Source of the DNA: Chthonomonadales bacterium
GTDB taxonomy: Bacteria > Armatimonadota > Chthonomonadetes > Chthonomonadales > Chthonomonadaceae
Length of the DNA: 16,669 bases
Assembly: GCA_038217285.1 (NCBI GenBank)
Contig: JBBQPO010000130.1
Span: forward strand, 1-16,669
Direction: 5' to 3'
The position numbers and the translations under genes are program-made. This document shows, piece after piece, positions 1 to 14,124 of this stretch (position 1 is its first letter; each line of letters opens with the position of its first letter). The notes beneath the pieces were generated by a model. That model was given only the letters and a program-made list of their open reading frames with translations. It ran no database searches and was not told the DNA's origin.

Positions 1-114
1 ACCCAGGAAGAGATCGCAAAACATATCAAAGCCACGGACCGAACCGTGCGAAATCGGTTGGAGAGCGCAGAGCGTCAGCTCGCAAGCTGGCGGGCCGACG
101 AGCCGCTGCGGTAA
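1..114 (+). CDS. 3' end (partial) of a sigma-70/ECF-like RNA polymerase sigma factor, region 4 HTH
   Basis: Absent from the ORF track. Frame 1 reads TQEEIAKHIKATDRTVRNRLESAERQLASWRADEPLR* (TAA 112-114), matching the region-4 pattern 'xxEIAxxLgxsxxTVrxRLxrAxxxL'. Only 37 residues are visible, so another HTH of the sigma4/LuxR fold cannot be excluded. Confidence 0.7.
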   Translation, partial: TQEEIAKHIKATDRTVRNRLESAERQLASWRADEPLR

Positions 115-131
115 GGGGATCGGGGAACGAA

Positions 132-764
132 ATGGGTACGACCAGAGAAGAGAGCACGATCATGGAGAGAGAGACCCTCTATATGTTGTGGCGTCGAGAC
201 CGGGAGCAGACCGCGCCGCGCCCACTGCAAGGCTGGATCGCGGAGTATCCTGTTTTTGAACACGACTTCGTGACCTGGGCTACGGAACTCCCGCTGATGC
301 AGCTTGCGGAGATTCGGGCGGACGATCCCATCGAGGAGGCGCGTCTGGGTCGGGTCGGTCGGTCGGTCGTGGCCGAGATGAGAGCCCAGTACGGCATGAC
401 GCATCGGCCCCTCACAAGCCTCTTGGAAGCCGCACGGCAGCAAAATCTTCGGCTTAAGGATGTGGCGGAGCGCCTCGGCATCGGGGTTCCTATCGTCTCG
501 AAGCTGGAGCAGCGGCTTATACAGTTCACGACGCTGCCCGAGTCCTTGATTCAGAAGCTGGCGGAGACACTGGACACTGCGACGGAGAACGTGCGCGACT
601 ATCTGCGGCAGCCGCCAACGCTTGCAGCGGGAGCGGCCTACCAGTACACGGGTAAGGCGGCCCCGCAGGTGCAGGCCCCGCAGGACTTTGCCGATGCCGT
701 CCGTACCTGTCCCAGCATGAGCGAAGCGCACAAGCAGGTCTGGCTGGCTGAGATCGAGGGGTAG
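132..764 (+). CDS. XRE/Cro-C1 family HTH protein with additional N-terminal helical and C-terminal domains
   Basis: Central HTH at ~aa 94-160 (AARQQNLRLKDVAERLGIGVPIVSKLEQR...LIQKLAETL). GGGGA SD-like sequence precedes ATG 132; alternative start at ATG 162. It lies 17 bp after the sigma-like gene and 8 bp before the next CDS. Confidence 0.8.
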   Translation: MGTTREESTIMERETLYMLWRRDREQTAPRPLQGWIAEYPVFEHDFVTWATELPLMQLAEIRADDPIEEARLGRVGRSVVAEMRAQYGMTHRPLTSLLEAARQQNLRLKDVAERLGIGVPIVSKLEQRLIQFTTLPESLIQKLAETLDTATENVRDYLRQPPTLAAGAAYQYTGKAAPQVQAPQDFADAVRTCPSMSEAHKQVWLAEIEG

Positions 765-772
765 GGCGAAGC

Positions 773-3700
773 ATGGTCAATCTCCAGTCGATCCGGCAGC
801 GGGCCTGGGAAGCGCACCGCGATTTGCGCCCCGAACTCTCCTCCTCCGACGGGAACCTCCTGCCAGCCGAGACACTGCTGGAACGGGCCTCGGTCGCGAC
901 CGGCCTGTTGCGTTACCCGTTGCCGCCCGGTGACGGACTGCTGGCGGGCGCACGCGCCGTGCTGCTGCGGGACCATGACAGCATCTACTATGCCGAGCCC
1001 GATTCGGACCGCTCCGCCCGACTACAGCGATTTTCGCAGGCGCACGAATTCGCGCATAACTGGCTGCACGATACGACCCGAGATTCGTTCGATGTGGAGG
1101 AGGAGCAACTGGCGCTCCTGCTTCTGCCCTCGCTGCCGCAGATCGCCCAGGTCGCACAGGGTTACAGCCCGGCGGAACGGCGGGAATCGGAAGCGAACGC
1201 GTTTGCCGCCGAGTTTCTGCTGCCGGGGCCGCTGCTGCGGCGAGCGTTCACTGAACAGCGCCTGACGGCCCCGCAGATCGCCGACCTGGTGGGGGTCTCG
1301 GAAGCCTGCGTCCTGGCGCAACTTGCGCAGGCGTTGTTGATACCGGCGATCGACGCTCGTTCGGAGACAGCCCCTGTTCAGCGCGATGCCAGCCTCCTCC
1401 GTTCCGGCGTTCTTGCCCCGATGCCCTCCCCTCTGGACCCGGATCAGGCGGCTGCCGCGTTCCTGAAACAGGGGCCCGCCCTGACGGACGCCGGACCGGG
1501 TACAGGCAAAACCCGCACCCTCGTCGCCCGCGCCGTCCATCTGCTGCAGGATCGGGGCCTGCCCCCGGAGCGCCTCCTCGCCCTCACCTTCTCCAACAAG
1601 GCGGCGGAAGAGATGCGTGCCCGACTGCAGGAGAGCGTCGGAGCGCTCTCCGACCAGGTGTGGATCGGCACCTTTCATGCGTTCGGCTTCGAGATACTAC
1701 GGAAAGACGGCCAGCGTCTCGGCCTGCCGAACACCCCCACACTGCTCCAGACCGCCGATGCGGTCGCCCTGCTGGTCTCCCACCTCGATGAACTCCCGCT
1801 GCAGCAGTTAGAGTATCTCAGCGATCCGACCCTGCCGTTTCCCGACATCCTGCGCTGTATCTCCCGCGCCAAGGACGAATGCATCACGCCGGAAGGCTAT
1901 CTGGCGCTGGCCGACACACAGTTCGCGAAGGCTGAGAACGACGAAGAACGGCTGAAGGCCATCAAGTCGCGGGAAGTAGCCCAACTATACGCCGTATATG
2001 AGGCCTTGAAACGCGAGCAGGGTCTGCTGGATTTCGGCGACCTGCTGATGCGCGCCGTCGAACTGCTGGACCGGGAGCCCGAGGTGAAGCAGCGCTGGCA
2101 GGAGCAGTATACGCATGTGCTTGCGGACGAGTATCAGGATGTCAATCGCGCCTGCGCCTATCTGCTGCAGCGCCTCGTCGGGAGCGGCGAAGGATTCTGG
2201 GCGGTCGGCGACCTTCGTCAGGCGATCTATCGGTTCCGTGGAGCCTCTCCTGCCAATGTGCGCCAGTTCGATCACGATTTCCCCGGCGGGCAGCGGCTCC
2301 GGCTCGGCGTCAACTACCGTTCCCGCGCGCCGATCGTAGCGTTGTTCAGCAGTTTCGCCTCAGCGATGTCGTCGGAGAACCCGAACGCTCCCGCGCCTGC
2401 CGAACGCCTCGTCTTGTGGAACGCCCAACGCGGAGGTGAGGATCTGCCCGCCGTCACCTTCGCGGAGGCAGAAGATGAAGAGGCGCAGGCGGATGGTCTG
2501 AGCGCGCAGATCCTGAGCTTTCAGGAGGCCGGTATTCCGATGCAGCAACAGGCGATCCTGGTCTGTACCAATGCGCAGGCGACCGATCTGGCGGAGCGAC
2601 TGGAAGACCGGGGGATTCCCACGCAGCATCTGGGCAGCCTGTTCGACCGTGCGGAGGTGAAGGATATGCTGGCGCTTCTGGCGCTGATCGCGGAGCCGCA
2701 GGGAACCACCCTGGCGCGGGTGGCGCAGTTCGCGGAATACGCGGTTCCGAAAGAGGATGTCGCCTTGCTGTTAGCCGAGGCGCAGGAACGGCAGCGTCCA
2801 TTTCCCGCAGCGCTGGGTCTGGCGGAGGATCTGCCGGGCCTTTCGGAAGCGGGGCGAACGGGACTGGGAAGACTGTGGCAGCAGATCCGGCCCATCCTTC
2901 ACAGAGGGGATGCCTGGGCGCTGCTCACCCGGTATCTATTCGCGCAGAGCAGCTACCTTCGGCCCCTAATCGCGGCGGAGACTGTGGCGGCACGGCAACA
3001 ACTGCTCGCACTCTCCCAACTGCTGACCTTCGCGCAGGGCCTGACGCAGCGGCTGCAGCCGCAGGAAGGCGAGACGCAGCCGCAACTCTTTCTGCGCCAT
3101 CTGCGGCAGTTGATCCTCTGCGGCGAGGAGCGGTCGGCCCGCACTCCAGGCGGGGTGGAGGACCTTCCCGCTGTGCGGCTCATGACGGTGCACCAGTCGA
3201 AAGGTCTGGAGTTTCCGGTCGTCTACTTGCCGAATCTCAACAAAGGCCAGTTTCCAGCCAGGGGATCCAGCGGTATGGTCGCGCCTCCGCCCGCGCTGCT
3301 CGGCGATGAGGACGAGGCGGATGCGGCTAAATCCGATGGAGCCGACTGCCTGTTCTTCGTGGCGCTTTCTCGCGCGAAAGACCAACTCGTGCTGTCCCGC
3401 CCACTGCGGCGTAACGGCTCGGAGACCAAACCCTCCCCCTTGCTCGAACGACTGGAGCCGGCGCTGAAGGCCTGCGGTGCGGCACGTGTTCAGTGGCAGC
3501 GTGTTCAGGCAGACGGAGAGCCGATCCCAATTAGCCCGGAACTTACCGCACCGCCGGATCTGTCCCTCTGGCAGGTCGATGCGTATCGCGACTGTCCGCG
3601 CCGGTTCTACTACCAGCAGGTGGCGCGCCTTCCCCGGCCCGACGACGCATCGCCTTATCTGCAGTTCCACGGCAGTCTCAAAGAGACGATTCAGTGGGTG

Positions 3701-4261
3701 CAACAAGAGCGAGGCGCCGGGCGCGAACCAGCGCCTGAAGCGGCCCGCCAGCGCCTGCACGAAACGTGGGAGCGGAGGTTTCCGGGAGCGGACACCGCCC
3801 AGAGCCGACTGCTCCGCAGTCACGCCGAAAAAATGCTGGACAACGCCTTCCAGAATCTCTCCCGCCCCGTCTCCGCACCGCCTTCCCTGCGCCTGGTCGC
3901 CGCCCTGGAGCATGGCACCGTCGAAGTCCCCTGCGACGAGGTCGAAACCCTGCCGGACGGCGGCCTGCGCGTGGCACGCCACTTCCGTCGCCGCATCAAG
4001 AAAGACGATCACACCGACGGACGCCTTGCCCTGATCCGCCACGCCGCCACGCAGGCAAACCCCGAACGCCCTGTAAAACTCGAACTGCGTTCCCTCGTAG
4101 ACGGCGAGATCCGCGAAGTGAAGCCAAACCTGCGCTACGAACCAGCCCGCGTCGAAAAATACAACGAGGCATTGCGAGGAATTCGAGCTGGCCAATTCCC
4201 TCCGGAACCAGAAGAGCGCAAATGCGCTCTCTGTCCCTTCTTCTTCCTCTGTCCCGCATGA
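773..4261 (+). CDS. Fusion: ImmA/IrrE (Peptidase_M78) Zn-metallopeptidase + UvrD/PcrA SF1 helicase + C-terminal PD-(D/E)XK-like Fe-S domain
   Basis: Peptidase: RFSQAHEFAH (HExxH aa 91-95), ESEANAFAAEFLLP (E140), then HTH (APQIADLVGVS). Helicase motifs: AGPGTGKT (aa 240-247), LTFSNKAAEEM, GTFHAF, DFGDL, DEYQD, VGDLRQAIYRFRGA, NYRS, MTVHQSKGLEFP, FFVALSRA. C-terminal domain: DCPRRFYY (C941) and CALCPFFFLCP (C1151, C1154, C1160). GAGGGG SD upstream. Confidence 0.92.
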   Translation: MVNLQSIRQRAWEAHRDLRPELSSSDGNLLPAETLLERASVATGLLRYPLPPGDGLLAGARAVLLRDHDSIYYAEPDSDRSARLQRFSQAHEFAHNWLHDTTRDSFDVEEEQLALLLLPSLPQIAQVAQGYSPAERRESEANAFAAEFLLPGPLLRRAFTEQRLTAPQIADLVGVSEACVLAQLAQALLIPAIDARSETAPVQRDASLLRSGVLAPMPSPLDPDQAAAAFLKQGPALTDAGPGTGKTRTLVARAVHLLQDRGLPPERLLALTFSNKAAEEMRARLQESVGALSDQVWIGTFHAFGFEILRKDGQRLGLPNTPTLLQTADAVALLVSHLDELPLQQLEYLSDPTLPFPDILRCISRAKDECITPEGYLALADTQFAKAENDEERLKAIKSREVAQLYAVYEALKREQGLLDFGDLLMRAVELLDREPEVKQRWQEQYTHVLADEYQDVNRACAYLLQRLVGSGEGFWAVGDLRQAIYRFRGASPANVRQFDHDFPGGQRLRLGVNYRSRAPIVALFSSFASAMSSENPNAPAPAERLVLWNAQRGGEDLPAVTFAEAEDEEAQADGLSAQILSFQEAGIPMQQQAILVCTNAQATDLAERLEDRGIPTQHLGSLFDRAEVKDMLALLALIAEPQGTTLARVAQFAEYAVPKEDVALLLAEAQERQRPFPAALGLAEDLPGLSEAGRTGLGRLWQQIRPILHRGDAWALLTRYLFAQSSYLRPLIAAETVAARQQLLALSQLLTFAQGLTQRLQPQEGETQPQLFLRHLRQLILCGEERSARTPGGVEDLPAVRLMTVHQSKGLEFPVVYLPNLNKGQFPARGSSGMVAPPPALLGDEDEADAAKSDGADCLFFVALSRAKDQLVLSRPLRRNGSETKPSPLLERLEPALKACGAARVQWQRVQADGEPIPISPELTAPPDLSLWQVDAYRDCPRRFYYQQVARLPRPDDASPYLQFHGSLKETIQWVQQERGAGREPAPEAARQRLHETWERRFPGADTAQSRLLRSHAEKMLDNAFQNLSRPVSAPPSLRLVAALEHGTVEVPCDEVETLPDGGLRVARHFRRRIKKDDHTDGRLALIRHAATQANPERPVKLELRSLVDGEIREVKPNLRYEPARVEKYNEALRGIRAGQFPPEPEERKCALCPFFFLCPA

Positions 4262-4407: not shown

Positions 4408-5250
4408 TCAGTTCCGCCTTTCGTTATCTTCCTCGGGATCGTTTCCGGTGCCTTTGCGCTTTTTCCACGCCGGGGTGGTCAGGGCGCTATGTTCGGATGC
4501 AAAGGATCGACCGCGCAGACGTGCCGTGAGCGCACGTAACATATCGTAGGTTGGACTGATGCCAGTTGTGCTGCGCAGCAGCGGCGCAAAGGCGGAAGCA
4601 TCGCGATGGCGGGCGGCAGCCAGCAGGATGTCCAACTCTGCTTCGAGATGTTGTTCCTGCGCATGCAGAAAGTCCCGACGACGGAAGTTTGCGTCGGCCT
4701 CGATCATCTCGACCGATGAGACGGATACGAACGCTTCGGGAAGCTTATCGTCCCAGAACTCGTAGTGCAGACTGACCCGGGCGATGTGGAATCGTCCCAG
4801 TCGCTCTGCCAGATGCGCCAGTCCGGGCTGAAAAACGAAGGGCCTCTGCTGATTGGAGAGCATCGCACCCTGCGGTGTCAACCAGAGAGCCCGACGCTGC
4901 CCGCGCAGCAGCCTCTCTGTATAGTCCAGAAACTCCCTCGCTCCTGCCAGACTTGTCCGGTCCACCCCGATCATTCCCAGGTTCGCAAAGAAGCGGTAAC
5001 GCTGCAGTTGTCGTTCGTCCATAACCCCGTACTGCTCCCACCCGAAAAATTCACGTTCGACATGAAACGCCAGCAGGACATCCCACCAACTGCTGTGATT
5101 CAGGCAGACGAGGAGAGGCGTTCGCCCGTCGTCGTCAAATAGGGGCGGCTCGCCGAGCAGATGCACCGCATGGAAACTGCGGCGAAGATAGCGGCGCACA
5201 TAGTGCGTGACGAAAGGTGTGTAGAAGGCCGGTGGGCCAGCGGGTATCAT
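4408..5250 (-). CDS. Lysophospholipid/glycerol acyltransferase (LPLAT, PlsC superfamily; resembles carotenoid-glycoside acyltransferases), 280 aa
   Basis: NHSSWWD (HxxxxD catalytic motif) and WLTPQG block III. The likely start is ATG at 5250 (MIPAGPP...), preceded by GGAGG/GAGG on the minus strand. The ORF track's 233-aa N-terminal extension is treated as an artefact. Confidence 0.85.
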   Translation of the reverse strand: MIPAGPPAFYTPFVTHYVRRYLRRSFHAVHLLGEPPLFDDDGRTPLLVCLNHSSWWDVLLAFHVEREFFGWEQYGVMDERQLQRYRFFANLGMIGVDRTSLAGAREFLDYTERLLRGQRRALWLTPQGAMLSNQQRPFVFQPGLAHLAERLGRFHIARVSLHYEFWDDKLPEAFVSVSSVEMIEADANFRRRDFLHAQEQHLEAELDILLAAARHRDASAFAPLLRSTTGISPTYDMLRALTARLRGRSFASEHSALTTPAWKKRKGTGNDPEEDNERRN

Positions 5251-5311
5251 GGCCTCTATTCTACCTCCAAAGCCCCTGGAACAGGCCCCTGCACTATTTC
5301 TCAACAACGAC

Positions 5312-5340
5312 TTGACAATTCTCGAAAACGCGAATATAAT
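5312..5340 (+). promoter_or_regulatory. Consensus sigma-70 promoter TTGACA-N17-TATAAT driving the HTH-tricorn locus
   Basis: TTGACA at 5312-5317, exactly 17 bp spacer, TATAAT at 5335-5340, within an AT-rich intergenic region of a high-GC genome. Confidence 0.85.
5318..5335. promoter_or_regulatory. Putative operator O1 (ATTCTC-N6-GcGAAT) filling the promoter spacer
   Basis: ATTCTCGAAAACGCGAAT is a dyad with one mismatch in its arms, and is the same motif as the site at 5412-5431. Confidence 0.65.
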
Positions 5341-5362
5341 GACCTGTCGATTCGCTTTCAGT

Positions 5363-5386
5363 GGCCTATTACTTAAGTTATAGGCC
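5363..5386. promoter_or_regulatory. 24-bp near-perfect palindrome (operator or 5' UTR hairpin)
   Basis: GGCCTATTACTTAAGTTATAGGCC has 11 of 12 positions self-complementary, centred at 5374/5375. Confidence 0.6.
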
Positions 5387-5411
5387 GCATTTTGACTATA
5401 TACTCCCTTTA

Positions 5412-5431
5412 AATTCTCGATTATGAGAATT
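5412..5431. promoter_or_regulatory. Putative operator O2 (AATTCTC-N6-GAGAATT)
   Basis: Perfect 7-bp inverted repeat with a 6-bp spacer just upstream of the wHTH gene, plus an extra GAGAAT half-site at 5446-5451. Confidence 0.7.
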
Positions 5432-5454
5432 ACAGTGATGGAAATGAGAATATC

Positions 5455-6015
5455 TTGGCCGTAAGACCGCCCAACGGGGAGACCGTCGCCGCAAAGGCGG
5501 ATATCGTCCTGCATCCCATTCGGTTTCGGATTCTTATGATCGCGTCCGGGCGGCGAGTCTCCGCGCAGCAGATCATCTCGGCACTTCCGGATGTCCCGCA
5601 GGCCTCGGCGTACCGACATATTGCGCGCCTTGTCGAAGCGGGGATACTGCAGGTCGTGGAAGAGGCCACTCTGCGAGGCACGGTTGAGAAGACCTATACG
5701 CTGCCCGATCAGGCTGCCGACCTCAGTCGTGAAGAGATGGCGCCGGTCAGCTCCGAAGACCATATGCGCTATTTCACGGCGTTTGTGACGCTCATGATGA
5801 GCCAGTTTCGCGCCTATCTGGAGCGCAAAGAGCGGGGAGGCAAGGACGGCGGCACCTACTGGTCCGAAGCCGTCTGTCTCACCGATGCCGAATACGACCA
5901 TTTTGTGAAGGCGCTGAAATCTATCGAAGGGCTGGCGGCCTCTCACCAACCCGGCCCAGAGCGACGCAGGCGACTGCTGTTCGCCGCTATCATCCCGGAT
6001 GTCGAGGAGATGTAA
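5455..6015 (+). CDS. ArsR-like (HTH_20) winged-helix transcriptional regulator
   Basis: ADIVLHPIRFRIL...LPDVPQASAYRHIARLVEAGILQVVEE..LRGTVEKTY is a typical wHTH, followed by a helical C-terminal domain. The start is uncertain: TTG 5455 is the first possible start after the in-frame TAA at 5410. Confidence 0.85.
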   Translation: MAVRPPNGETVAAKADIVLHPIRFRILMIASGRRVSAQQIISALPDVPQASAYRHIARLVEAGILQVVEEATLRGTVEKTYTLPDQAADLSREEMAPVSSEDHMRYFTAFVTLMMSQFRAYLERKERGGKDGGTYWSEAVCLTDAEYDHFVKALKSIEGLAASHQPGPERRRRLLFAAIIPDVEEM

Positions 6016-6095
6016 TCCTCATCTTATTTTCGTGCGCTCGACCGTCTTTCGCCGCGGACGCCACTCCGCACCCATTCGCTCATTCAGGAGATGCC

Positions 6096-9000
6096 ATGTC
6101 AACATCAGGTTACTTTCGTTATCCCGCTCTGCACGGAGAGACCGTCGTCTTCGTTTCCGAAGACGATCTCTGGACCGTGCCTGCGTCCGGAGGCGTTGCG
6201 CGACGACTGACCGCCAACCTTGGCACGATCACCTCTCCGTTTCTCTCCCCGGATGGCAAGACCATCGCGTTTACAGGACGCGAAGAGGGGAACAACGAGG
6301 TCTATGTGATCCCGGTGGAAGGCGGCCCTGTTCGTCGTGTGACCTATCTGGGTACCTCCAGCAGTGTGGTCGGCTGGATGCCGGACGGCGAGAAGATCCT
6401 TTTTGCCAGCGATTTCGAGCAGCCGTTTGATCGCCAGCACGACATCTATACGGTTCCCATCACGGGCGGAATGCCGGAGCCGTTGCGCGTCGGCCATGCG
6501 CTGAGCATCTCCGTTCGAGCGGGCAACAAAATCGTACTCGGAAGAAACAACAACGACCCGGCGCGGTGGAAACGTTATCGCGGCGGCACCGCCGGAGACC
6601 TCTGGATCGACGCCGAAGGCCACGGTGAGTTCCGACGCCTGCTCACCCTCAAGGGCAATCTGGCGCGCCCGATGTGGGTCGGGGAGCGAGTCTTCTTTCT
6701 CTCCGACCACGACGGCGTCGCGAATCTCTACTCCTGCACGACCGATGGCCAGGACGTTACGCAGCATACCCACTGCACCGACTATTTCGCGCGCTTTCCC
6801 GCGACCGACGGCAGTCGAATCGTCTACCATGCCGGTGGCGATCTCTACCTTTACGATCCGAAAGCCAACACCGACACAAAGATAGACGTCGCCTACCATA
6901 GCCCGCAGGTCGCCCGACAGCGCAAGTTTGTAGACGCGGCGAAGTACATGGACGGTTACGACCTCGCCCCGCAAGGGCAGGCGCTGGCTATAACGACGCG
7001 CGGCAAGAGTTTCACGCTGGGCAACTGGGAGGGCGCGGTTCTGCAGCAGGGCGGCGACAGTCCCTCAAACCCGGTGCGGTATCGTCTGACGAGCTGGCTC
7101 AACGACGGCAAGCGTGTCATTACCGTGAACGATTCGGATGGCGCCGACACGCTGGAGATTCACTCGACAGCCGATAAGACCGCGCCAAAGCGCCTGGAGG
7201 GGCTCGATCTTGGGCGTCCGATGTCGCTGCTTGTCTCGCCGACCGCCGATCATATCGTGCTCACCAATCATCGCAACGAGCTGCTCTGTGTCGATCTGGT
7301 GGAGGGGACTCTGCAGCAGATTGATCGCAGCGACTTCGCGCGGATTCAGGGTGTCAACTGGTCCCCCGACGGTCGATGGGTCGCGTACGGGTTTGCGGAA
7401 ACCATGTATACGAGCGCCATCAAACTCTGGGAGCGGGCGACCGGAACCAAACAGGCCATTACGGAGCCTATTCTCGGGGACTCGGACCCGGCGTTCGATC
7501 CCGAAGGCAAATATCTCTATTTCCTCGGTCAACGCGAACTGAATCCTGTCTACGACGGCCTGCATTTCGACCTCGGGTTCCCAAAAGGCACACGGCCTTA
7601 CCTCATCACCCTGAAAGCCGATACGCCTTCCCCTTTTATCCCCCAACCGCGTCCGCTGCAGGAAGGGCCGAAGCCCAAAGGGGAGAGCGAAGAGGTGACG
7701 CCGGAGGAGGAGGCGACCGGAGAGGTCCCGGCGAAACCGGCCGAGGCCCTGCCGAATGCGGTCGAGATCGACCTGGAGGGCATCCGGAATAGGATCGTGG
7801 CGTTTCCCGTTCCTGAAGGGCGCTACGGGCAGATCGCGGGCATCAAGGGCAAAGTGCTGTTTACCTCTTATCCGGTCGAGGGCGCGAATAGCCAGGGTGG
7901 CGAACCCGGTCCGAAGGGCGTCCTCGAAGTCTACGACCTGAAAGAGCTGAAGCATGAGCCTCTGATACAGAAGGTCAGCGAATTTACACTCTCGCGGGAC
8001 GGCAAAACGCTGGCCTATCGCTCGGCGCGGAAGCTGCGGGTCGTAGTGGCGGGCGTCAAGCCGGACGACAAGGCCGGACAGGAACCCGGCCGAAAGTCGG
8101 GCTGGATCGATCTCAACCGGATCAAGGTGTCGCTGGAACCCGGCGTCGAATGGCAGCAGATGGCGCACGAGGCGTGGAGGCTGCAGCGCGACTATTTCTG
8201 GACGGCGGATATGTCGCAGATCGACTGGAACGCCGTCTGGGAGCGGTACGCGCCGCTTCTGGCGCGCGTGGGAACCCGCGGCGAGTTCTCCGACTTGATG
8301 TGGGAGATGCAGGGCGAACTCGGCACTTCACACGCCTACGAGATGGGCGGCGACTATCGAACCGAGCCCAGCTATCCGACCGGCTTCCTCGGCGCGAACC
8401 TGACGTTCGATGCCGACGCAGGCGTCTACCGAATCGCCCACATCGTGCAGGGAGCGCCGGGTGAGGCTCGCGCCTCATCGCCGTTGCTTGCGCCTGGCGC
8501 TCAAATAAACGAAGGGGACGCGCTGCTAGCAGTCAACGGCAGAACCCTAACCCCGTCTGTGCTGCCGCAGGAGGCACTGGTCAATCTCGCGGGCAGCGAG
8601 GTGGTTCTGACGGTGCAGGGTCAGGACGGCAAGACCCGCGACGTGACGGTCGTGACGCTGAAATCCGAATTTCCGGCCCGTTATCGCGAGTGGGTCGAAA
8701 CGAACCGCCGCTATGTCCACGAGAAGACCGGTGGGAAGGTCGGCTATGTGCATATTCCCGACATGGGAGCCAATGGCTATGCGGAGTTCCATCGTCTCTA
8801 TCTGGCGGAAGCGGACCGCGACGGCCTGATCGTCGATGTGCGGTACAATCGCGGCGGCCATGTTTCGCAACTGTTGCTGGAGAAGCTGGGGCGGCGGCGT
8901 GTCGGTTACGACATTCAGCGCTGGGGGCAGCCGCAGCCCTATCCGGATCACTCCATTGCCGGACCCATCGTCGCGCTGACCAACCAGTTCGCAGGCTCCG

Positions 9001-9356
9001 ATGGCGACATCTTCAGCCACGTCTTCAAGATCAAGAAGTTGGGTACGCTCATCGGCAAACGAACCTGGGGCGGAGTCATCGGTATCTCACCGCGAAACTC
9101 GCTGGCCGACGGTGCGATGACGACGCAGCCGGAGTACTCCTTCTGGTTCCAGGATGTCGGCTGGGGCGTCGAGAACTATGGCACCGATCCGGACATCGAC
9201 ATCGATATCGCGCCGCACGACTACGCGCGAAAGGTTGATCCGCAGATGGAAAAGGCGCTTGAGGTGATCTTGAGCCAACTGGAGGAGAACCCGGTCCCGC
9301 GTCCCGATTTCGCCAATCGACCGAACCTTGCCATTCCTGGCAGACCACAAGGATAG
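6096..9356 (+). CDS. tri: Tricorn protease (peptidase family S41B), cytoplasmic
   Basis: N-terminal GYFRYPALHGETVVFVSEDDLW and PD40-like beta-propeller repeats (SPDG, WKRYRGG). Catalytic ELGTSHAY (H746) and AGSDGDIF (S968), a PDZ segment, DVRYNRGG, GKRTWGGVIG, VENYGTDPD. CAGGAG SD; no signal peptide seen. Confidence 0.95.
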   Translation: MSTSGYFRYPALHGETVVFVSEDDLWTVPASGGVARRLTANLGTITSPFLSPDGKTIAFTGREEGNNEVYVIPVEGGPVRRVTYLGTSSSVVGWMPDGEKILFASDFEQPFDRQHDIYTVPITGGMPEPLRVGHALSISVRAGNKIVLGRNNNDPARWKRYRGGTAGDLWIDAEGHGEFRRLLTLKGNLARPMWVGERVFFLSDHDGVANLYSCTTDGQDVTQHTHCTDYFARFPATDGSRIVYHAGGDLYLYDPKANTDTKIDVAYHSPQVARQRKFVDAAKYMDGYDLAPQGQALAITTRGKSFTLGNWEGAVLQQGGDSPSNPVRYRLTSWLNDGKRVITVNDSDGADTLEIHSTADKTAPKRLEGLDLGRPMSLLVSPTADHIVLTNHRNELLCVDLVEGTLQQIDRSDFARIQGVNWSPDGRWVAYGFAETMYTSAIKLWERATGTKQAITEPILGDSDPAFDPEGKYLYFLGQRELNPVYDGLHFDLGFPKGTRPYLITLKADTPSPFIPQPRPLQEGPKPKGESEEVTPEEEATGEVPAKPAEALPNAVEIDLEGIRNRIVAFPVPEGRYGQIAGIKGKVLFTSYPVEGANSQGGEPGPKGVLEVYDLKELKHEPLIQKVSEFTLSRDGKTLAYRSARKLRVVVAGVKPDDKAGQEPGRKSGWIDLNRIKVSLEPGVEWQQMAHEAWRLQRDYFWTADMSQIDWNAVWERYAPLLARVGTRGEFSDLMWEMQGELGTSHAYEMGGDYRTEPSYPTGFLGANLTFDADAGVYRIAHIVQGAPGEARASSPLLAPGAQINEGDALLAVNGRTLTPSVLPQEALVNLAGSEVVLTVQGQDGKTRDVTVVTLKSEFPARYREWVETNRRYVHEKTGGKVGYVHIPDMGANGYAEFHRLYLAEADRDGLIVDVRYNRGGHVSQLLLEKLGRRRVGYDIQRWGQPQPYPDHSIAGPIVALTNQFAGSDGDIFSHVFKIKKLGTLIGKRTWGGVIGISPRNSLADGAMTTQPEYSFWFQDVGWGVENYGTDPDIDIDIAPHDYARKVDPQMEKALEVILSQLEENPVPRPDFANRPNLAIPGRPQG

Positions 9357-10863: not shown

Positions 10864-12615
10864 AGAACCGCCGTTCAAGCTGGTTTTCTGCCGAAATACT
10901 TCGTAGAGCATCAGTCCTGTTGCCACGCCTACATTCAGTGAATCCTGACCTGTGGCCATCGGTATCTGTATCCGCGCGCTACAGACGTCCAGCACCGGCT
11001 GGCTGATACCCGTCTGTTCGTTACCAACCACCACGACAATGGGAGGCTGCATCTTACTTTGATAGAGTGTATGTTCGGCGCCGAGGGCCGCGCCGACGAC
11101 TGCACACCCGCTGTTTTGCAGGCTCCACAGAAACTGTGCGAGAGACTGGCAGGAGAGAAGCGGTAAACGTCCGACAGCTCCACGCGCCGCCCGTACACAG
11201 TTTTTGTGAAAAGGATCCGTGCCCTGCCCGGCGACAATGACGCCTTCCGCGTCGGCGGCGTCCGCCGTCCGTAATATCATCCCCAGGTTATCCGGGTTAT
11301 GGATGTTTTCGGCTGCCAGGAGCGTGGTGGTCTTGCCCGGCGTGAAACGTTCTGCCGCGCGCAGCTGCGCGAAGACGGCCGCTAATACCGGCGGAACAGG
11401 ACGACTTGTCGTCACCTTCGCCAACAAGCCTTCCGTGACAAGATAGTGGGATACGCCCGCCTGACGTGCGGCGTGGAGCAGCATGATCCCGCTCGGCAGG
11501 CTTAAAAGGCTCGACGTATAGAGCAGGTTATCGACGGGCATACCATCGTCGATGGCGCGCTGAACCAACGTGATGCCCTCGGCGACAAACTGGGACCGCT
11601 CTCTTCGGCCCGCAGTGTGAGCGAGGTCGGAAAACTGAACGAGGATCGGATCCTTGCTCGTACTGATTCGTCCGCCTTCGCCGAGACGTTCCGGTTTCGC
11701 GCTTTTCGCGGCTTGTGGCTTCTGACCTGCCACAGTATAAAACTCCCTGACAGGCGTCTCGGTAACTTTACCGCTTCCGCGCTTGATACCCAGGTATGAG
11801 GGCACACGATAGAACGCCTGATAACCTGTTCGCTGGAAAGCCCGTATAGACTCTTCATTGCAGGATAGATTGGCAGTGCACGTGGCGACCTTACCCTGAT
11901 CGACGACTTCGCTCGTGGCCGACGTGATCACGCTTTCTGCATAGGGACGGGCATAGGTGTTTACGGCCTGCAACCCGTGGACTTCGTTCCGCCAGGGCGT
12001 CACTGGCCAGTGAAAGCAGATAGCGCGCAGTTCCTCCGTCTCCTGACAGGCATGAACGCCGTATCCGCCCGCCTGTAGTTCCTGCCATACACTCTCGCTC
12101 CACTGCGACTGCACAAGGTGATAGTCCGGTGCGCCCAGCCTCCTCGCCGGAAAGTCACGACAGGGCACGAGGGTTTCTCCTGTCGCGTAGTATCCTTCCC
12201 GAGACGGCATGCTGCGCCCGTCCAGGATCTCGTTCAGCGCAGGCGTCATCCACGATCCACCCAGGTAAAAGAACCCGACCTTGCCCGGCGGAAAGGCCAG
12301 CAGAAGATCCCGCAAGGCCCGTTCGTTTGTAGCGGCCAGTCCAACGCGGATGTCTGCGTCGAACTCCGTTTCCGGCGTGAGCAGCATGACTCCCTCTAAC
12401 TGCGTCCATCCTGTCGCGAAGACCTGGAATTTCGCCGCCGCTCCCTCGGCAGCCTCGCGAGGAAGGCCAAGATCCAGATAAGGTATCGTGCCGAGAAGGT
12501 TCTGGTCATCGCGCAGGAGATCAGGAATGGCAGGCGTCGGAATAAAGCAGTCCTTTAACTTTGACCGGTTGATAAAGTCAAGAACAGCGGCATAGTCGGT
12601 GGTAGTCGTCGCCAT
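10858..12615 (-). CDS. TrmH/SpoU (SPOUT) RNA 2'-O-methyltransferase with a ~300-aa N-terminal GNAT-like extension
   Basis: C-terminal half from ~aa 317: ISTSKDP...FVAEG (L30e-like substrate-binding domain), ENIHNPDNLGMILRTADA, VVGNEQTGIS, IPMATGQDSLNVGVATGLMLYE (SPOUT motifs 1-3). The N-terminal half has a GNAT-like ending NEESIRAFQRTGY. AGGAGA SD. Confidence 0.85.
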   Translation of the reverse strand: MATTTTDYAAVLDFINRSKLKDCFIPTPAIPDLLRDDQNLLGTIPYLDLGLPREAAEGAAAKFQVFATGWTQLEGVMLLTPETEFDADIRVGLAATNERALRDLLLAFPPGKVGFFYLGGSWMTPALNEILDGRSMPSREGYYATGETLVPCRDFPARRLGAPDYHLVQSQWSESVWQELQAGGYGVHACQETEELRAICFHWPVTPWRNEVHGLQAVNTYARPYAESVITSATSEVVDQGKVATCTANLSCNEESIRAFQRTGYQAFYRVPSYLGIKRGSGKVTETPVREFYTVAGQKPQAAKSAKPERLGEGGRISTSKDPILVQFSDLAHTAGRRERSQFVAEGITLVQRAIDDGMPVDNLLYTSSLLSLPSGIMLLHAARQAGVSHYLVTEGLLAKVTTSRPVPPVLAAVFAQLRAAERFTPGKTTTLLAAENIHNPDNLGMILRTADAADAEGVIVAGQGTDPFHKNCVRAARGAVGRLPLLSCQSLAQFLWSLQNSGCAVVGAALGAEHTLYQSKMQPPIVVVVGNEQTGISQPVLDVCSARIQIPMATGQDSLNVGVATGLMLYEVFRQKTSLNGGSA

Positions 12616-12649
12616 GTCCGTGGTTTTCTCCTGCGCCTGTCATTGTCGA

Positions 12650-14050
12650 TTAGATTCGCGAACGGACATAGGTGTGGAGTTCGGCGATGGGAATACGGTG
12701 CTGCTGCATGGTGTCCCGGTCGCGAATGGTGACGGTGTCCTTCATATCGGTGTCGTCGCCGCGGCCAAGCGTGTCGAAATCGACGGTGACGCAGAAGGGC
12801 GTGCCGATCTCGTCCTGGCGGCGGTAGAGTTTGCCGATACCGGCGGAATCGTCATAGACGGCCCGCATATCGCCGCTGGCCTGGAGATCGCTCTTGATCT
12901 TCTTCGCGATCGTCACGATCCCATCCTCATTCTTCTTCAGGGGCAGGATCGCGACCTTGATGGGCGCGAGCGCAGGCTTCAGGCGAAGCACGGTACGCAC
13001 CTCCCCGTTTTCCAGTGTCTCCTCGTCGTAGGCTTCGCAGAGGGCGGCCAGCACGCCGCGGTCCACGCCCGCCGAGGGCTCGATGACATAGGGAACGATA
13101 TGCCGGTTGTTCGGCTGATCGAAGTAGGTCAGCTTCTCCGTGCTGTGTTCGTTCTGCATCACCTTCGCTGTCAATCCCAGTTTCGCCTGATCCCTGGAAT
13201 GGGAGCCGAGGTCGTAATCGGTGCGGTTGGCGATGCCTTCCAACTCCTCCCAGCCGATGGGAAACTTGTACATGACATCGACGGTGCGTTTGGAATAGTG
13301 GGCGAGTTCCGCCTTCGGCACCTCATACAAGTTCAGGTTTTCGCGCTTAAGTCCGACTTCATTGACCCAGAAATCGACATGATCCTTGATCCACTCTTCA
13401 TGGACCGCCTCGTCTTCTCCAGGACGCACGAAATACTCGATCTCCATCTGTTCGAACTCGCGAACGCGGAAAATGAAGTTGCGCGGCGTGATCTCGTTGC
13501 GGAACGACTTGCCAACCTGCGCGATACCGAAGGGCAGTTTGCGATTCGTCGAGTCCACGACGTTCTTGAAGTTGACGAAGATACCCTGCGCTGTCTCCGG
13601 ACGGAGGTACGCGAAGGAGTCCGGATCGGCGACAGGGCCGACCGCCGTCTTGAACATCATATTGAAGGCGCGGGGCTCGGTCAGCTCGCCCTCGCATTCG
13701 CCAGGGTGCAGCTTCGGATGTTTCAGGCAGGTGCCGTCCTGCAGTTTGTCTGCGCGGAAGCGGGCTTTGCAGGTCTTGCAGTCTACCAACGGATCGACGA
13801 ACGTGTCTTCATGCCCGGAGTATTTCCAGACCCAGCGGTTCATCAGGATCGAACAGTCGATGCCTTCCATGTCGTCGCGTTCGTAGACGTTATGCTTCCA
13901 CCACAGCTTTTTCAGGTTGTTCTTAAGCTCCACCCCCAGCGGCCCGTAGTCGAACGTTCCCTGCAGGCCCCCGTAGATTTCGCTGCCGCCAAAGATAAAG
14001 CCCCGCCGCTTGCAAAGCGAGACCAGTTGTTCCATGTTCTGTGCTGCCAT
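12650..14050 (-). CDS. glyQS: Glycine--tRNA ligase, homodimeric alpha2 type
   Basis: [120 protein letters not shown]. Confidence 0.98.
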
Positions 14051-14124
14051 AGCCGGTGAAGATTCCTTTTCCCGATAAATATTCTGAACTCACACTCTTC
14101 GCGATAGCCCCGGCAGAATCCTTG

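Follow-up and report, generated by a model that had tools for sequence, protein, structure and literature searches.

A sigma factor, an XRE helix-turn-helix (HTH) protein, and a large protease-helicase fusion are encoded side by side in the DNA of a Chthonomonadales bacterium, and we consider it probable that the three genes constitute one signaling module, in which a helicase-protease that senses DNA would cut an anti-sigma/XRE protein and thereby release a dedicated sigma factor. This model builds on gene content, its conservation, the fold of the sigma factor, a common promoter-like motif, and a predicted contact between sigma factor and inhibitor, all of which were computed. No description of such a sigma, XRE, and helicase-protease trio was found in the literature searched.

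The genes lie on the plus strand between positions 1 and 4261 of the window, by which we mean the whole 16,669-nt stretch that was analyzed. Read directly from the coordinates, the gaps between them are 17 nt (bases 115–131) and 8 nt (bases 765–772), which agrees with the original prediction of three co-oriented, tightly spaced genes. The first position of the window is also the first base of its contig (C130), and thus the sigma-like gene is truncated by the contig end. The ~230 codons that it lacks are located at one end of another contig of this genome, C197, where residues 4 to 235 of a sigma orthologue map by tblastn to bases 696 to 1, and the end of C197 and the start of the window share an exact 15-bp overlap.

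Table 1. Features of the sigma/XRE/fusion locus (window coordinates)
Feature	Coordinates	Strand	Basis
Sigma factor gene, 3′ end, 37 aa, sigma region 4 helix-turn-helix	1..114	+	frame 1, TAA stop
XRE-HTH protein, 210 aa; read as anti-sigma factor, presumed protease substrate	132..764	+	ATG at 132
N-terminal helical domain, aa 1–92, predicted sigma-binding part	132..407	+	model helices 5–87, predicted interface
XRE helix-turn-helix domain, aa 97–159	420..608	+	HTH_3, fold comparison
Linker aa 160–185 (YLRQPPTLAAGAAYQY...PQV), then two C-terminal helices aa 186–209	609..758	+	alignment, model
Fusion protein, 1162 aa: M78 metallopeptidase + UvrD/PcrA-type SF1 helicase + PD-(D/E)XK-like	773..4261	+	ATG at 773
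Peptidase_M78 (IrrE/ImmA/CapP-type), aa 80–183; HEFAH nt 1043–1057	1010..1321	+	Pfam E = 3.5e-11
UvrD/PcrA-like helicase core, aa 222–877; Walker A GPGTGKT nt 1493–1513	1436..3403	+	Pfam
PD-(D/E)XK-like domain, Cas4/AddB-type, cysteines C941, C1151, C1154, C1160	3560..4255	+	PF12705

Conservation of the trio had been set beforehand as a test that could overturn the original prediction. Among Chthonomonadales (Armatimonadota), the three genes are contiguous and in order in 18 of 20 fetched loci, and the remaining two genomes retain the fusion gene unlinked, elsewhere in the genome. In other genomes, 71 of 80 loci have both the sigma and the XRE gene directly ahead of the fusion gene, with profile matches at that position for XRE in 75 and for sigma in 72; six of the nine loci missing one or both partners have less than 800 nt of upstream DNA. 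Represented among these 80 loci are Armatimonadota, Chloroflexota, Acidobacteriota, Alpha- and Betaproteobacteria, Planctomycetota, and others, and gene order, orientation, and tight spacing are maintained across phyla down to 33 to 40% protein identity. This arrangement is not due to chance.

Gene 1 is a divergent ECF-type sigma factor. The 37-aa piece in the window gave no Pfam match by itself, and each of eight full-length orthologues scanned matched Sigma70_r4_2 and none matched Sigma70_r2. Region 2, on whose presence in the upstream gene the original prediction depended, is missed by Pfam, but a region-2-like domain is present: the family profile spans sigma2 and sigma4 of solved ECF sigma factors among PDB sequences (6in7_B, E = 7e-12, profile positions 71–247), and the sigma model (pLDDT 89) has sigmaE, SigL, SigE, SigH, and AlgU as its top fold matches (1or7_A sigmaE, E = 3.3e-4). 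The protein differs from usual ECF members by this missing Pfam match and by an N-terminal extension of ~70 aa. As in ECF sigma/class I anti-sigma pairs such as sigmaE-RseA, AlgU-MucA, and SigW-RsiW, a protein with sigma2 and sigma4 domains is encoded beside the gene for its presumed inhibitor. Release of ECF sigma factors usually occurs by proteolysis of the anti-sigma factor.

Structure prediction casts the XRE protein as an anti-sigma factor that would act through its N-terminal domain, lending support to the earlier description of this protein as anti-sigma-like. The predicted sigma/XRE complex scored 0.77, 0.77, and 0.76, compared with 0.01 for the best control; the mark used for such predictions is one that 58 of 80 solved complexes and 2 of 110 mismatched pairs attained. 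Contact agreement between runs was at least 84%, and partner pLDDT was at least 81. In the predicted interface, XRE residues 11 to 92 contact sigma residues 84 to 163 and 208 to 238 (numbered after an equally long, 74%-identical orthologue in locus L042), such that the XRE N-terminal domain is placed between sigma domains 2 and 4, the position taken by the inhibitor in class I pairs. Whole-model fold searches, which barely tested this domain, returned no anti-sigma match for it. The putative inhibitor departs from class I anti-sigma factors in being cytoplasmic, with no membrane span noticed, in carrying an HTH domain, and in lacking the HxxxCxxC zinc motif. Likewise, where ECF pairs rely on a site-1/site-2 membrane protease cascade, the trio would use a cytoplasmic fusion of M78 peptidase and helicase. 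The complex score may also owe something to the predictor having learned from solved structures of ECF sigma factors with their anti-sigma partners.

Homologs of the XRE protein are present in 51 of 61 related genomes. Its HTH domain resembles those of regulators that are known substrates of M78 peptidases, namely CapH, ImmR, and DdrO. HTH_3 matched residues 100 to 149 (E = 1.1e-4) with 22.6 bits, just missing the Pfam cut-off of 23 bits. In VIA-align comparisons made with the model (pLDDT 86), the HTH domain matched the N-terminal domain of CapH with Z 7.6 (rmsd 1.6, 61 aligned), ImmR with Z 7.0, and DdrO with Z 6.8, and the XRE profile matched CapH (7t5u) with E = 2.2e-4. In the family alignment, A168 and P178 are invariant, and Y157, L164, F186, A189, and W204 are conserved in at least 90% of members. 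The linker, which is without secondary structure in the model, is a candidate cleavage region.

The third gene was expected to encode an HExxH peptidase fused to an SF1 helicase. Both domains were found, with HEFAH (E92) and GPGTGKT (K246) as claimed, whereas a third, four-cysteine PD-(D/E)XK-like domain had been missed. Pfam UvrD-helicase matches residues 222 to 504 (E = 4e-65), accompanied by UvrD_C (E = 1e-35), and PDDEXK_1 matches residues 930 to 1161 (E = 1.9e-11). The pcrA model TIGR01073 covers residues 221 to 877 with a score far under cut-off, as are all NCBIfam equivalog scores for this protein, and comparison of the M78 domain with PDB sequences reached CapP only at E = 0.5. Full-length homologs of 33 to 80% identity are present in the 80 loci and many phyla. 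Among 67 family members, H91, E92, and H95 of the peptidase site are kept in 66, and E138, the Walker A motif, the Walker B motif (DEYQD), and the four cysteines are kept in all. Motif III, in contrast, reads VARHFRR in the window in place of the canonical DYK; most relatives have RIRTGR or KYKTGK, and DYK occurs only in locus L051. Because this motif is degenerate, the PD-(D/E)XK-like domain is probably not a nuclease, as judged from sequence. AddAB, AdnAB, RecBCD, and Cas4 likewise provide an SF1 UvrD-like motor followed by PD-(D/E)XK with the Cas4/AddB four-cysteine pattern. Compared with AddAB, AdnAB, and RecBCD, however, the fusion consists of one polypeptide, for which no partner subunit was seen, and has its motif III (D/E)xK replaced, and the N-terminal peptidase is a feature of the fusion family alone.

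A two-block promoter-like motif, composed of TTTCCGG, a spacer, and a −10-like box, is located upstream of the sigma gene; for the operon studied here, the site is TTTCCGG-N17/18-GAGT(A/G) on contig C197. Autoregulation is common among ECF/class I anti-sigma pairs, and the trio promoter looks autoregulated as well. The motif was first spotted by eye. When the 5-mer TTCCG alone was counted, in loci that are not independent (L052–L054 and L056, for example, are near-identical), 45 of 60 loci had a site in the last 150 nt 5′ of the sigma gene; in the 150 nt past the fusion stop, sites were present in 22 of 32 loci linked to Bil defense genes versus 15 of 41 others, against a background of 21% of 150-nt windows. 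The strict motif occurs at 16 sites in the window's own genome versus 4 for a reversed control, and in five relatives at 11 versus 2, 10 versus 3, 8 versus 2, 6 versus 1, and 5 versus 3, with about one-quarter of genome-wide matches expected by chance. In the window's genome, it lies 5′ of the trio operon and of a divergent gene of 100 aa with lexA behind it; further candidates include lon and a bleomycin-resistance-like gene. In genomes G000 and G003, the site preceding lon persists, with conserved boxes and a diverged spacer; relatives do not retain the gyrA site, and the motif is absent upstream of the unlinked fusion genes. The original prediction was of a RecA/LexA-independent response; in the window's genus, lexA adjoins the trio locus behind a promoter-like motif of the same type. 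The sigma factor probably also drives the divergent 100-aa gene with lexA and a few scattered genes in the window's genome, and the shared motif strengthens the earlier suggestion that the output of the module is a sigma regulon.

Elsewhere among the phyla, distinct effector operons (Bil or AbiEii) follow the trio and share its promoter-like motif. In operons of BilABCD, a ubiquitin-like (bacterial ISG15-like) defense system, the motif is located past the fusion gene and ahead of bilA, with which these operons begin. BilA-D are encoded directly downstream of the trio in L053, L057, L086, and L095, the last from a species of Collimonas, the genus that supplied the model Bil system. The BilD cluster is represented in 36 of 80 related loci, mostly downstream of the trio and co-oriented. 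The suggested linkage to E1/E2/JAB loci is real in other phyla, in the form of Bil loci. No Bil genes were found in the window or its genome, and a search of 61 related genomes for BilD at E ≤ 1e-20 gave no match (positive control, 3 of 3). Without Bil genes in its genome, the window is not a Bil system; the common part, and hence the kinship with BilABCD loci, is the regulator family. Taken as a whole, the original interpretation is partly supported.

Alternatively, the XRE HTH domain could use the TTTCCGG box as its operator. We regard as unlikely, but as the most serious competitor, a CapH/CapP-like derepression in which the XRE protein is mainly a DNA-binding repressor on TTTCCGG promoters that is removed after DNA damage, and in which the sigma factor is not sequestered and is merely needed to read those promoters. 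The HTH domain is well formed and closest to the DNA-binding domains of CapH, ImmR, and DdrO, and the two inverted boxes (TTTCCGG/CCGGAAA) of the Chthonomonadales promoter region could serve as an operator; in Anaerolineae loci, the −10-like box has short inverted repeats on either side. CapH/CapP pairs are also reported to accompany 15% of type II Bil operons (10.1101/2023.09.26.559546). However, the bilA-proximal copy of the motif is single, non-palindromic, and built of two blocks at fixed spacing, resembling a −35/−10 pair, and it is the additional N-terminal domain, which CapH and DdrO lack, that is predicted between sigma2 and sigma4 with such separation from controls. Repressor and anti-sigma functions of the XRE protein are not mutually exclusive.

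Somewhat more doubtful is the view that the fusion works chiefly in DNA repair or as an effector, attacking foreign or broken DNA as a helicase-nuclease similar to AddA/AdnAB or GajB, with sigma and XRE controlling only its expression and the M78 domain serving self-processing or another target. The strong similarity of the fusion to PcrA/UvrD/AddA, GajB, and DRT-associated defense helicases, its Cas4/AddB-type cysteines, and the lack of a downstream effector in the window, together with the missing BilD in related genomes, would suit such a role. Nevertheless, the degenerate (D/E)xK motif of the window and most of the 67 relatives makes DNA cutting unlikely, the peptidase site is conserved as well as the ATPase site, and the position of the trio before separate Bil or AbiEii operons with the same motif fits a regulator. 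That the trio is a hitch-hiking mobile-element block of unrelated sigma factor, immunity repressor, and helicase is very improbable: neighboring genes do vary from locus to locus and occurrence across phyla is patchy, as in horizontally moved DNA, but the stable arrangement at low identity, the common motif, the predicted sigma/XRE contact, and co-occurrence even when unlinked argue otherwise, and no integrase or transposase was noticed beside the trio in the loci inspected.

In the signaling module that we favor, the sigma factor would drive its own operon from the C197 promoter and would be inhibited by the XRE N-terminal helical domain clamping it between domains 2 and 4. The fusion would be the sensor, with a UvrD-type motor and a Cas4/AddB-like Fe-S domain that has lost its nuclease motif. 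It may load onto abnormal DNA, either ends or single strands arising from damage or an invading phage, whereupon the fused M78 peptidase would cut the XRE inhibitor and free the sigma factor. That DNA is the trigger, that the protease cuts the inhibitor, and which genes make up the regulon are inferred, as are helicase sensing of DNA ends and gating of the protease by the ATPase. In other phyla, free sigma factor would turn on downstream BilABCD or AbiE-like defense genes via the second promoter copy, and in Chthonomonadales the module would stand alone and control a small chromosomal regulon.

CapH/CapP, IrrE(PprI)/DdrO of Deinococcus, and ImmA/ImmR of ICEBs1 likewise have an M78 HExxH peptidase encoded beside an XRE-HTH gene and share the presumed logic, in which a DNA cue acts through a protease to eliminate a negative regulator. 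CapP and IrrE end in a small, GAF-like sensor domain, whereas the peptidase of the trio shares its polypeptide with a helicase of the UvrD type and a PD-(D/E)XK-like Fe-S domain. Relative to CapH/CapP, the XRE protein has an extra, predicted sigma-binding domain, and a dedicated sigma gene belongs to the module. Association with anti-phage operons including Bil is common to CapH/CapP and the trio, but the trio is co-oriented with the operon it would control and the CapH/CapP pairs described for type II Bil are divergent (10.1101/2023.09.26.559546). ECF control of a CBASS/CRISPR defense island is described for DdvS-DdvA of Myxococcus (PMC11506125).

The first three genes of the window are co-oriented and nearly contiguous, and their reading frames confirm the gaps of 17 and 8 nt that were originally described between a sigma-like gene, a gene for an XRE-HTH protein and a gene for a large protein in which an M78 peptidase is fused to a UvrD/PcrA-type SF1 helicase. 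The first of these genes is cut by the window start. The window is the entire contig C130 (16669 bases) of a 6.2-Mb Chthonomonadales genome (G000) that is 95% complete, and the remainder of the sigma gene lies at the end of a second contig, C197, where tblastn with orthologues places residues 4-235 at C197:696..1. The C197 end overlaps the window start by 15 identical bases. In a public sequencing run that contains 94% of sampled words, a contig likewise begins at window base 1, with no bridge between the two. C197 is treated here separately from the window, as locus L123.

Features of the window, of the adjoining contig C197 (locus L123) and of the XRE protein model
Feature	Position	Strand	Remarks
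Sigma-like gene fragment, frame 1	1..114	+	37 codons and stop
XRE-HTH gene	ATG 132 to 764	+	210 aa
Fusion gene	ATG 773 to 4261	+	1162 aa
Acyltransferase-like gene	4408..5949	-	next gene downstream, convergent to the trio
Tricorn-type protease gene	6096-9356	+	PD40 repeats, Tricorn_C1, PDZ_Tricorn, Peptidase_S41
486-aa open frame	12599-14059	+	antisense to the aminoacyl-tRNA synthetase gene; no Pfam match
Class II aminoacyl-tRNA synthetase gene	12650-14050	-	
HerA-like ATPase gene, cut by contig end	15866-16669	-	"anti-phage-associated helicase HerA" NF042943, E=3e-17; PADLOC HerA, E=4e-20
Divergent ~100-aa gene	L123:870-1169	+	behind inverted motif copy
lexA	C197:1274-1996 (L123/L131)	+	directly after divergent 100-aa gene
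N-terminal helical domain	XRE protein, helices 5-87		XRE protein model
HTH domain	XRE protein, residues 97-159		XRE protein model
Conserved stretch without secondary structure	XRE protein, residues 160-185		YLRQPPTLAxGAxY...PQV; XRE protein model
Two C-terminal helices	XRE protein, residues 186-209		XRE protein model

The trio is a strongly conserved unit that occurs in several phyla. Within the order, a homologue of the XRE protein is present in 51 of 61 genomes (38 of the 44 of good quality), and the sigma C-terminus, XRE and fusion genes are adjacent and co-oriented in 18 of the 20 loci fetched. In the other two, from genomes G015 and G025, the sigma and XRE genes are paired and the fusion gene lies elsewhere on the chromosome. 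The flanks of the trio are not conserved among these 20 loci, apart from a short gene (~100 aa) that lies divergently upstream of the sigma gene. At 80 further loci, assigned by record title to Chloroflexota, Acidobacteriota, Alpha-, Beta- and Gammaproteobacteria, Planctomycetota, Desulfuromonadaceae and a bin titled Flavobacteriaceae, the fusion protein has full-length relatives (33-80% identity). Profiles of the sigma-like (A1) and XRE (A2) proteins of the order detect sigma-like open frames directly upstream of the fusion gene in 72 of the 80 loci, XRE frames in 75 and both in 71, counts that overstate independence because some loci are near-identical (e.g. L052-L054 and L056). Among the nine loci without both partners, six have less than 800 nt of upstream DNA, one (L095) has a sigma gene scoring under the profile threshold and one (L108) carries an XRE fragment. 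Only L049 truly has neither gene upstream, despite 5 kb of upstream DNA; its fusion match (5001-8312) starts at residue 31.

Comparisons of profiles and of a predicted fold indicate that the first gene of the trio is a divergent ECF-type sigma factor, with region 2 present at the level of fold and profile and not at the level of Pfam. The 37 aa in the window align to the sigma4 part of orthologues from 16 loci at 45-89% identity. Full-length orthologues measure ~250-270 aa, of which ~70 residues are an N-terminal extension without a match, and all eight of those searched match Sigma70_r4_2 (E 1e-9 to 3e-17), whereas none of the eight gives a Pfam match to Sigma70_r2. When a profile of 19 orthologues is compared with PDB sequences, positions 71-247 align with residues 13-184 of AlgU (6in7_B, E=7e-12) and, over approximately residues 13 to 185, with 8z6g_B, 1or7_A and 5wuq_A (matches include sigmaE, SigW, CnrH and SigK). 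In the profile alignment, a conserved EFWEVRFWxCL segment coincides with the region 2.3-2.4 helix of ECF sigma factors. An AlphaFold2 model (pLDDT 89, 60-row alignment) has its best Foldseek matches in sigmaE (1or7_A, E=3.3e-4), SigL, SigE, SigH and AlgU, over 170-194 aligned columns. The TM-scores of these matches are low (0.2-0.46), as is expected when two domains are oriented differently. Thus, region 2, on which the original assignment hinged, is covered by both profile and fold matches, though it is too divergent for Pfam. We consider it very probable that the protein is a real sigma factor with promoters of its own.

Such sigma proteins may have escaped the published ECF classification. 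In the accessible part of one account, groups ECF130 and ECF201 are noted as "near HTH proteins", and ECF201 is listed as Firmicutes only (PMC7826278). In public annotation, the partners of the fusion gene appear as "sigma-70 family" or "hypothetical protein", and the sigma and XRE proteins match nothing specific in PADLOC or NCBIfam.

A two-block motif accompanies the sigma gene. In Chthonomonadales, the sequence TTTCCGG, 17-18 nt and GAGT(A/G)GG are found just upstream of this gene, and an inverted copy of TTTCCGG lies 40-100 nt further up, with its own GAGTG box on the other strand, facing the divergent 100-aa gene. Loci of other phyla keep the first box (TTTCCGGTTT, or TTCCGxTTTTT in Alphaproteobacteria) and have a lineage-specific second one (CGATTA, CGACT, TCGCTT or CATTTA); the Chthonomonadales-type motif was not found there as such, only with a variant -10-like box. 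The pair of boxes occurs twice per locus in these phyla, before the sigma gene and again in the 90-140 nt between the fusion stop codon and bilA of the BilABCD ubiquitin-like (ISG15-like) anti-phage operon. By a crude count, TTCCG occurs within 150 nt ahead of the sigma gene in 45 of 60 loci and within 150 nt past the fusion stop codon in 22 of 32 Bil-linked loci and 15 of 41 loci without a Bil link, compared with 21% of all 150-nt windows of the loci. The unlinked fusion genes of G015 and G025 have no sigma-type motif upstream.

Because of its single, non-palindromic, two-block form with fixed spacing, the motif looks like a -35/-10 pair, putatively read by the module's own sigma factor. The TTTCCGG box could instead be an operator. 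If the motif is a promoter of this sigma factor, then the module would regulate itself and would directly activate the defence operon downstream. Upstream of the sigma gene in three loci (L053, L057 and L059), the -10-like box is enclosed by short inverted repeats. The arms of these repeats vary between taxa yet stay complementary (CCCTAT/ATAGGG, CACTA/TAGTG and CCCAAT/ATTGGG), and the repeats could be an operator or a hairpin.

Structure prediction suggests that the second gene of the trio encodes an anti-sigma factor that includes an XRE domain. The protein model (pLDDT 86) is divided into four parts, and residues P40, L125, Y157, L164, A168, P178, F186, A189 and W204 are invariant or nearly so in the family. 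The Pfam match to HTH_3 is weak (residues 100-149, 22.6 bits relative to a cut-off of 23), and the family profile matches CapH (7t5u) with E=2.2e-4. The fold of the HTH domain is closest to the N-terminal domain of CapH (VIA Z 7.6, rmsd 1.6 over 61 residues), followed by ImmR (Z 7.0) and DdrO (Z 6.8), in a range where many XRE proteins score similarly. In two whole-model fold searches, by which the N-terminal domain was barely tested, this domain gave generic helical matches only, with no anti-sigma factor listed. Unlike zinc-binding anti-sigma (ZAS) factors, the protein has no HxxxCxxC motif, there being no cysteine in residues 1-190 of its 210 aa.

To the suggestion that this protein is anti-sigma-like, a predicted complex with the sigma factor now adds support. 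Three runs on the cognate pair from a genome of the same genus (L042), for which the two alignments had 60 and 73 rows, scored 0.77, 0.77 and 0.76 versus 0.01 for the best control, with contact agreement of at least 84% and partner pLDDT of at least 81. The mark of the prediction tool is reached by 58 of 80 solved complexes and by 2 of 110 mismatched pairs, a comparison to be read with the caution that the tool may pass families whose solved complexes it has memorised and that the sigma side is such a family. The predicted contacts join XRE residues 11-92 to sigma residues 84-163 (sigma2) and 208-238 (sigma4), which would place the XRE protein's domain between sigma2 and sigma4 as in pairs of the sigmaE-RseA type. 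This predicted complex supports binding of the XRE protein to the sigma factor, and we regard it as likely that the inhibitor does bind its sigma partner.

The fusion protein carries three domains in Pfam: Peptidase_M78 (PF06114; residues 80-183, E=3.5e-11), UvrD-helicase and UvrD_C (222-670 and beyond), and PDDEXK_1 (930-1161). The HEFAH (91-95) and GPGTGKT (241-247) motifs are present; the PDDEXK_1 domain had been overlooked in the original prediction. In an alignment of 67 non-identical family members, the M78 residues H91, E92 and H95 are kept in 66 and the downstream glutamate E138 in all 67, as are the Walker A and DEYQD boxes. In a comparison with PDB sequences, the M78 domain matched CapP at no better than E=0.5. 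In the C-terminal domain, C941, C1151, C1154 and C1160 are invariant in all 67 and form the four-cysteine pattern of Cas4 and AddB, and the protein gives weak NCBIfam matches to TIGR00372 (cas4) and addB. No acidic or lysine residue of the PD-(D/E)XK core is conserved in 90% or more of the 67 members. In motif III, at the position of the canonical DYK, the window has VARHFRR and most relatives have RIRTGR or KYKTGK, with DYK in L051 only, an assignment that depends on the alignment. The domain thus differs from the nucleases of the AddAB/RecB/Cas4 type in having no catalytic D...(D/E)xK while sharing their four Fe-S-type cysteines. We read it as a probable module for binding DNA ends or DNA structures that has lost cutting activity, and the third gene looks, from its sequence, like a sensor rather than a nuclease. 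Its public names are "ATP-dependent helicase", "UvrD-helicase domain-containing protein" and, in one source, "helicase/Zn-dependent peptidase ImmA".

In the mechanism that we propose, the XRE protein would hold the sigma factor through its N-terminal domain. The helicase-protease would always be present at a low level and would engage abnormal DNA through its motor and Fe-S domain, and this engagement would bring or activate the M78 site, such that the XRE protein would be cut, perhaps in its conserved linker. The freed sigma factor would then bind core polymerase and fire its own promoter, creating positive feedback as well as fresh inhibitor for shut-off. It would also fire its targets, which would be bilABCD or abiE-like genes elsewhere and a small regulon in Chthonomonadales. 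The cascade as first envisaged stands with respect to conservation of the trio and the presence of sigma region 2, and it has gained a sigma fold, a predicted contact and a duplicated motif. Its central step, cleavage of the XRE protein by the fused peptidase on a DNA cue, we judge to have about an even chance of being correct.

In combining an M78 peptidase with an intact HExxH motif and an adjacent XRE-family HTH protein, the trio resembles CapH/CapP, IrrE/DdrO and ImmA/ImmR. Proteases of the CapP, IrrE and ImmA type are stand-alone proteins of ~250-330 aa with a small C-terminal sensor domain, whereas the peptidase of the trio is the first 220 aa of a 1162-aa protein and is fused to a motor. 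Also unlike those systems, the XRE protein of the trio has an extra, predicted sigma-binding domain and a sigma gene is part of the unit. Its presumed output is that of ECF sigma/anti-sigma pairs, and the trio is a plain member of neither class. To our knowledge, removal of an anti-sigma factor by a protease that carries its own DNA motor would be the first known case; if true, DNA surveillance would be linked directly to sigma-factor release. We found no description of a sigma, XRE and M78-helicase trio in the open literature searched; the genes may be listed in supplements to the papers on Bil, CapH/CapP and ECF factors.

Clustering of the open frames of the 80 loci revealed further conserved, co-oriented genes 3′ of the fusion gene. 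PADLOC identifies BilA, BilB (Pfam DUF7665), BilC (JAB) and BilD (E1) in L053, L057, L086 and L095, with E values of 1e-48 to 1e-171, so that the link to ubiquitin-like (E1/E2/JAB) loci that had been raised for the trio is borne out in other phyla. In L095 the trio adjoins all four genes (Ubl, E2, JAB and E1), and checks of L053, L057 and L086 showed matching genes. The BilD cluster is found in 36 of the 80 loci; the counts for BilA to BilC are lower only because the crude gene caller often took the wrong strand. An imuA-imuB-dnaE2 mutagenesis cassette had been a candidate for these downstream genes and is ruled out, as Pfam and PADLOC show BilA-D. Acidobacteriota loci instead have, after the trio, either a small gene and an AbiEii-like nucleotidyltransferase gene (14 loci in the cluster; checked in L070) or a gene for a VWA protein (5 loci). 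In ten alphaproteobacterial loci (cluster c11; L074, L085, L086, L089, L114, L118, L120 and others), the gene for an AAA_27/SMC-like (Rad50/LmuB-like) ATPase of ~1130-1170 aa lies immediately upstream of the sigma gene and is co-oriented with it. Since the defence genes downstream differ, the trio behaves like a portable cassette.

L095 is from a Collimonas species, and the experimentally studied model Bil system comes from Collimonas sp. OK412. As described in the portion of that work available to us, it is a four-gene operon expressed from an inducible rather than its native promoter (10.1101/2022.05.11.491447). The trio would bear on the native trigger of Bil. OK412 is represented in the 90%-or-more cluster of the Collimonas fusion protein by pieces of 437 and 330 aa, and its fusion gene may be split, broken or cut by annotation. 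With respect to its target operon, the orientation of the trio differs from that of the CapH/CapP pairs of type II Bil operons, going by the accessible descriptions of the latter.

The module takes another form in its own genome and order. Unlike BilABCD loci, G000 has no match to BilB and no clear BilD, giving for the latter only a weak ThiF-like match (E=1.9e-5) of a kind also seen in E. coli; BilD is found in none of the 61 related genomes at E<=1e-20, with a positive control of 3 out of 3. No co-oriented effector gene lies downstream of the trio within the window. The strict pattern TTTCCGG-N17/18-GAGTR has 16 matches in G000 versus 4 for the reversed control, and in five relatives the matches and controls number 11 and 2, 10 and 3, 8 and 2, 6 and 1, and 5 and 3. 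Each regulon member is only a candidate because roughly a quarter of the matches are expected by chance. Besides two divergent sites on C197, the apparently non-coding matches in G000 precede a glyoxalase/bleomycin-resistance-family gene, lon, a gene for a 183-aa protein without a Pfam match, a DUF4365 gene and gyrA. We dropped gyrA as a regulon member, its site being 227 nt upstream and not kept in relatives. G000 and G003 have the lon site in common, its two boxes conserved and its spacer altered. Matches in relatives lie before glyoxalase/bleomycin-resistance-like genes (G002 and G023), UDG-family genes (G001 and G003), hsdR and cas3 (G002), a Uma2-type endonuclease gene (G019), a DUF1016 gene (G001) and a DUF899/AhpC-like gene (G002). 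The recurring theme of this candidate regulon is DNA damage and defence, insofar as motif matches identify its members.

The divergent ~100-aa gene upstream of the sigma gene is present in 11 of the 20 loci of the order (L022-L041), plus G003 and G000, and could belong to the Chthonomonadales module as its fourth member. Its product has no Pfam match and gave no usable Atlas lead (best score 0.84). The lexA gene that follows it is identified by TIGR00498 (204.6 bits, above cut-off, C197:1364-1975), and this adjacency is confined to the four genomes of the genus. The module may feed into the SOS system or bypass it, and the stand-alone Chthonomonadales form beside lexA would allow its relation to the SOS response to be studied. 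A second, partial LexA-like match lies on contig C20. In G002, a small contig has two promoter-like sites (C265:627-721) that are letter-for-letter those of C197, and the more distant trio proper to this genome is on C5; a second strain may be present in the bin.

We know of only a few regulator families by which anti-phage systems are silenced and switched on. In the accessible text of a 2026 report, CapK+CapS is presented as the third such family, after CapW (WYL regulators) and CapH+CapP (PMC13373217). An ECF sigma/anti-sigma pair controls a CBASS/CRISPR island in Myxococcus, according to the part of that study at hand (PMC11506125). The trio could represent a fourth family beside CapW/BrxR, CapH+CapP and CapK+CapS, a reading that we hold tentatively, at slightly less than an even chance. 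An ATP-driven, DNA-translocating sensor fused to a protease would destroy an anti-sigma factor, and the response would be fired by the sigma factor and not by loss of a repressor. In many phyla the module would be the native on-switch of type I Bil and some AbiE-like systems; Chthonomonadales would have kept it in their absence, for a chromosomal regulon of DNA damage and defence with lexA, lon, UDG, bleomycin-resistance-like, Cas3 and HsdR genes among those touched. As a concrete candidate for testing, the trio supplies a promoter sequence together with a sigma factor, its inhibitor and a sensor enzyme in which E92Q and K246A are obvious point mutants.

Beyond the acyltransferase-like gene, the window encodes the tricorn-type protease, a class-V aminotransferase, a SpoU methylase, the class II aminoacyl-tRNA synthetase, a DUF3769 protein and the cut HerA-like ATPase, any partner gene of which would be situated past the contig end. 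The 486-aa frame antisense to the synthetase gene is most likely a shadow frame in GC-rich DNA. The gene for the tricorn-type protease adjoins the trio in two genomes of the genus as well (cluster c7), and this adjacency is probably plain synteny.
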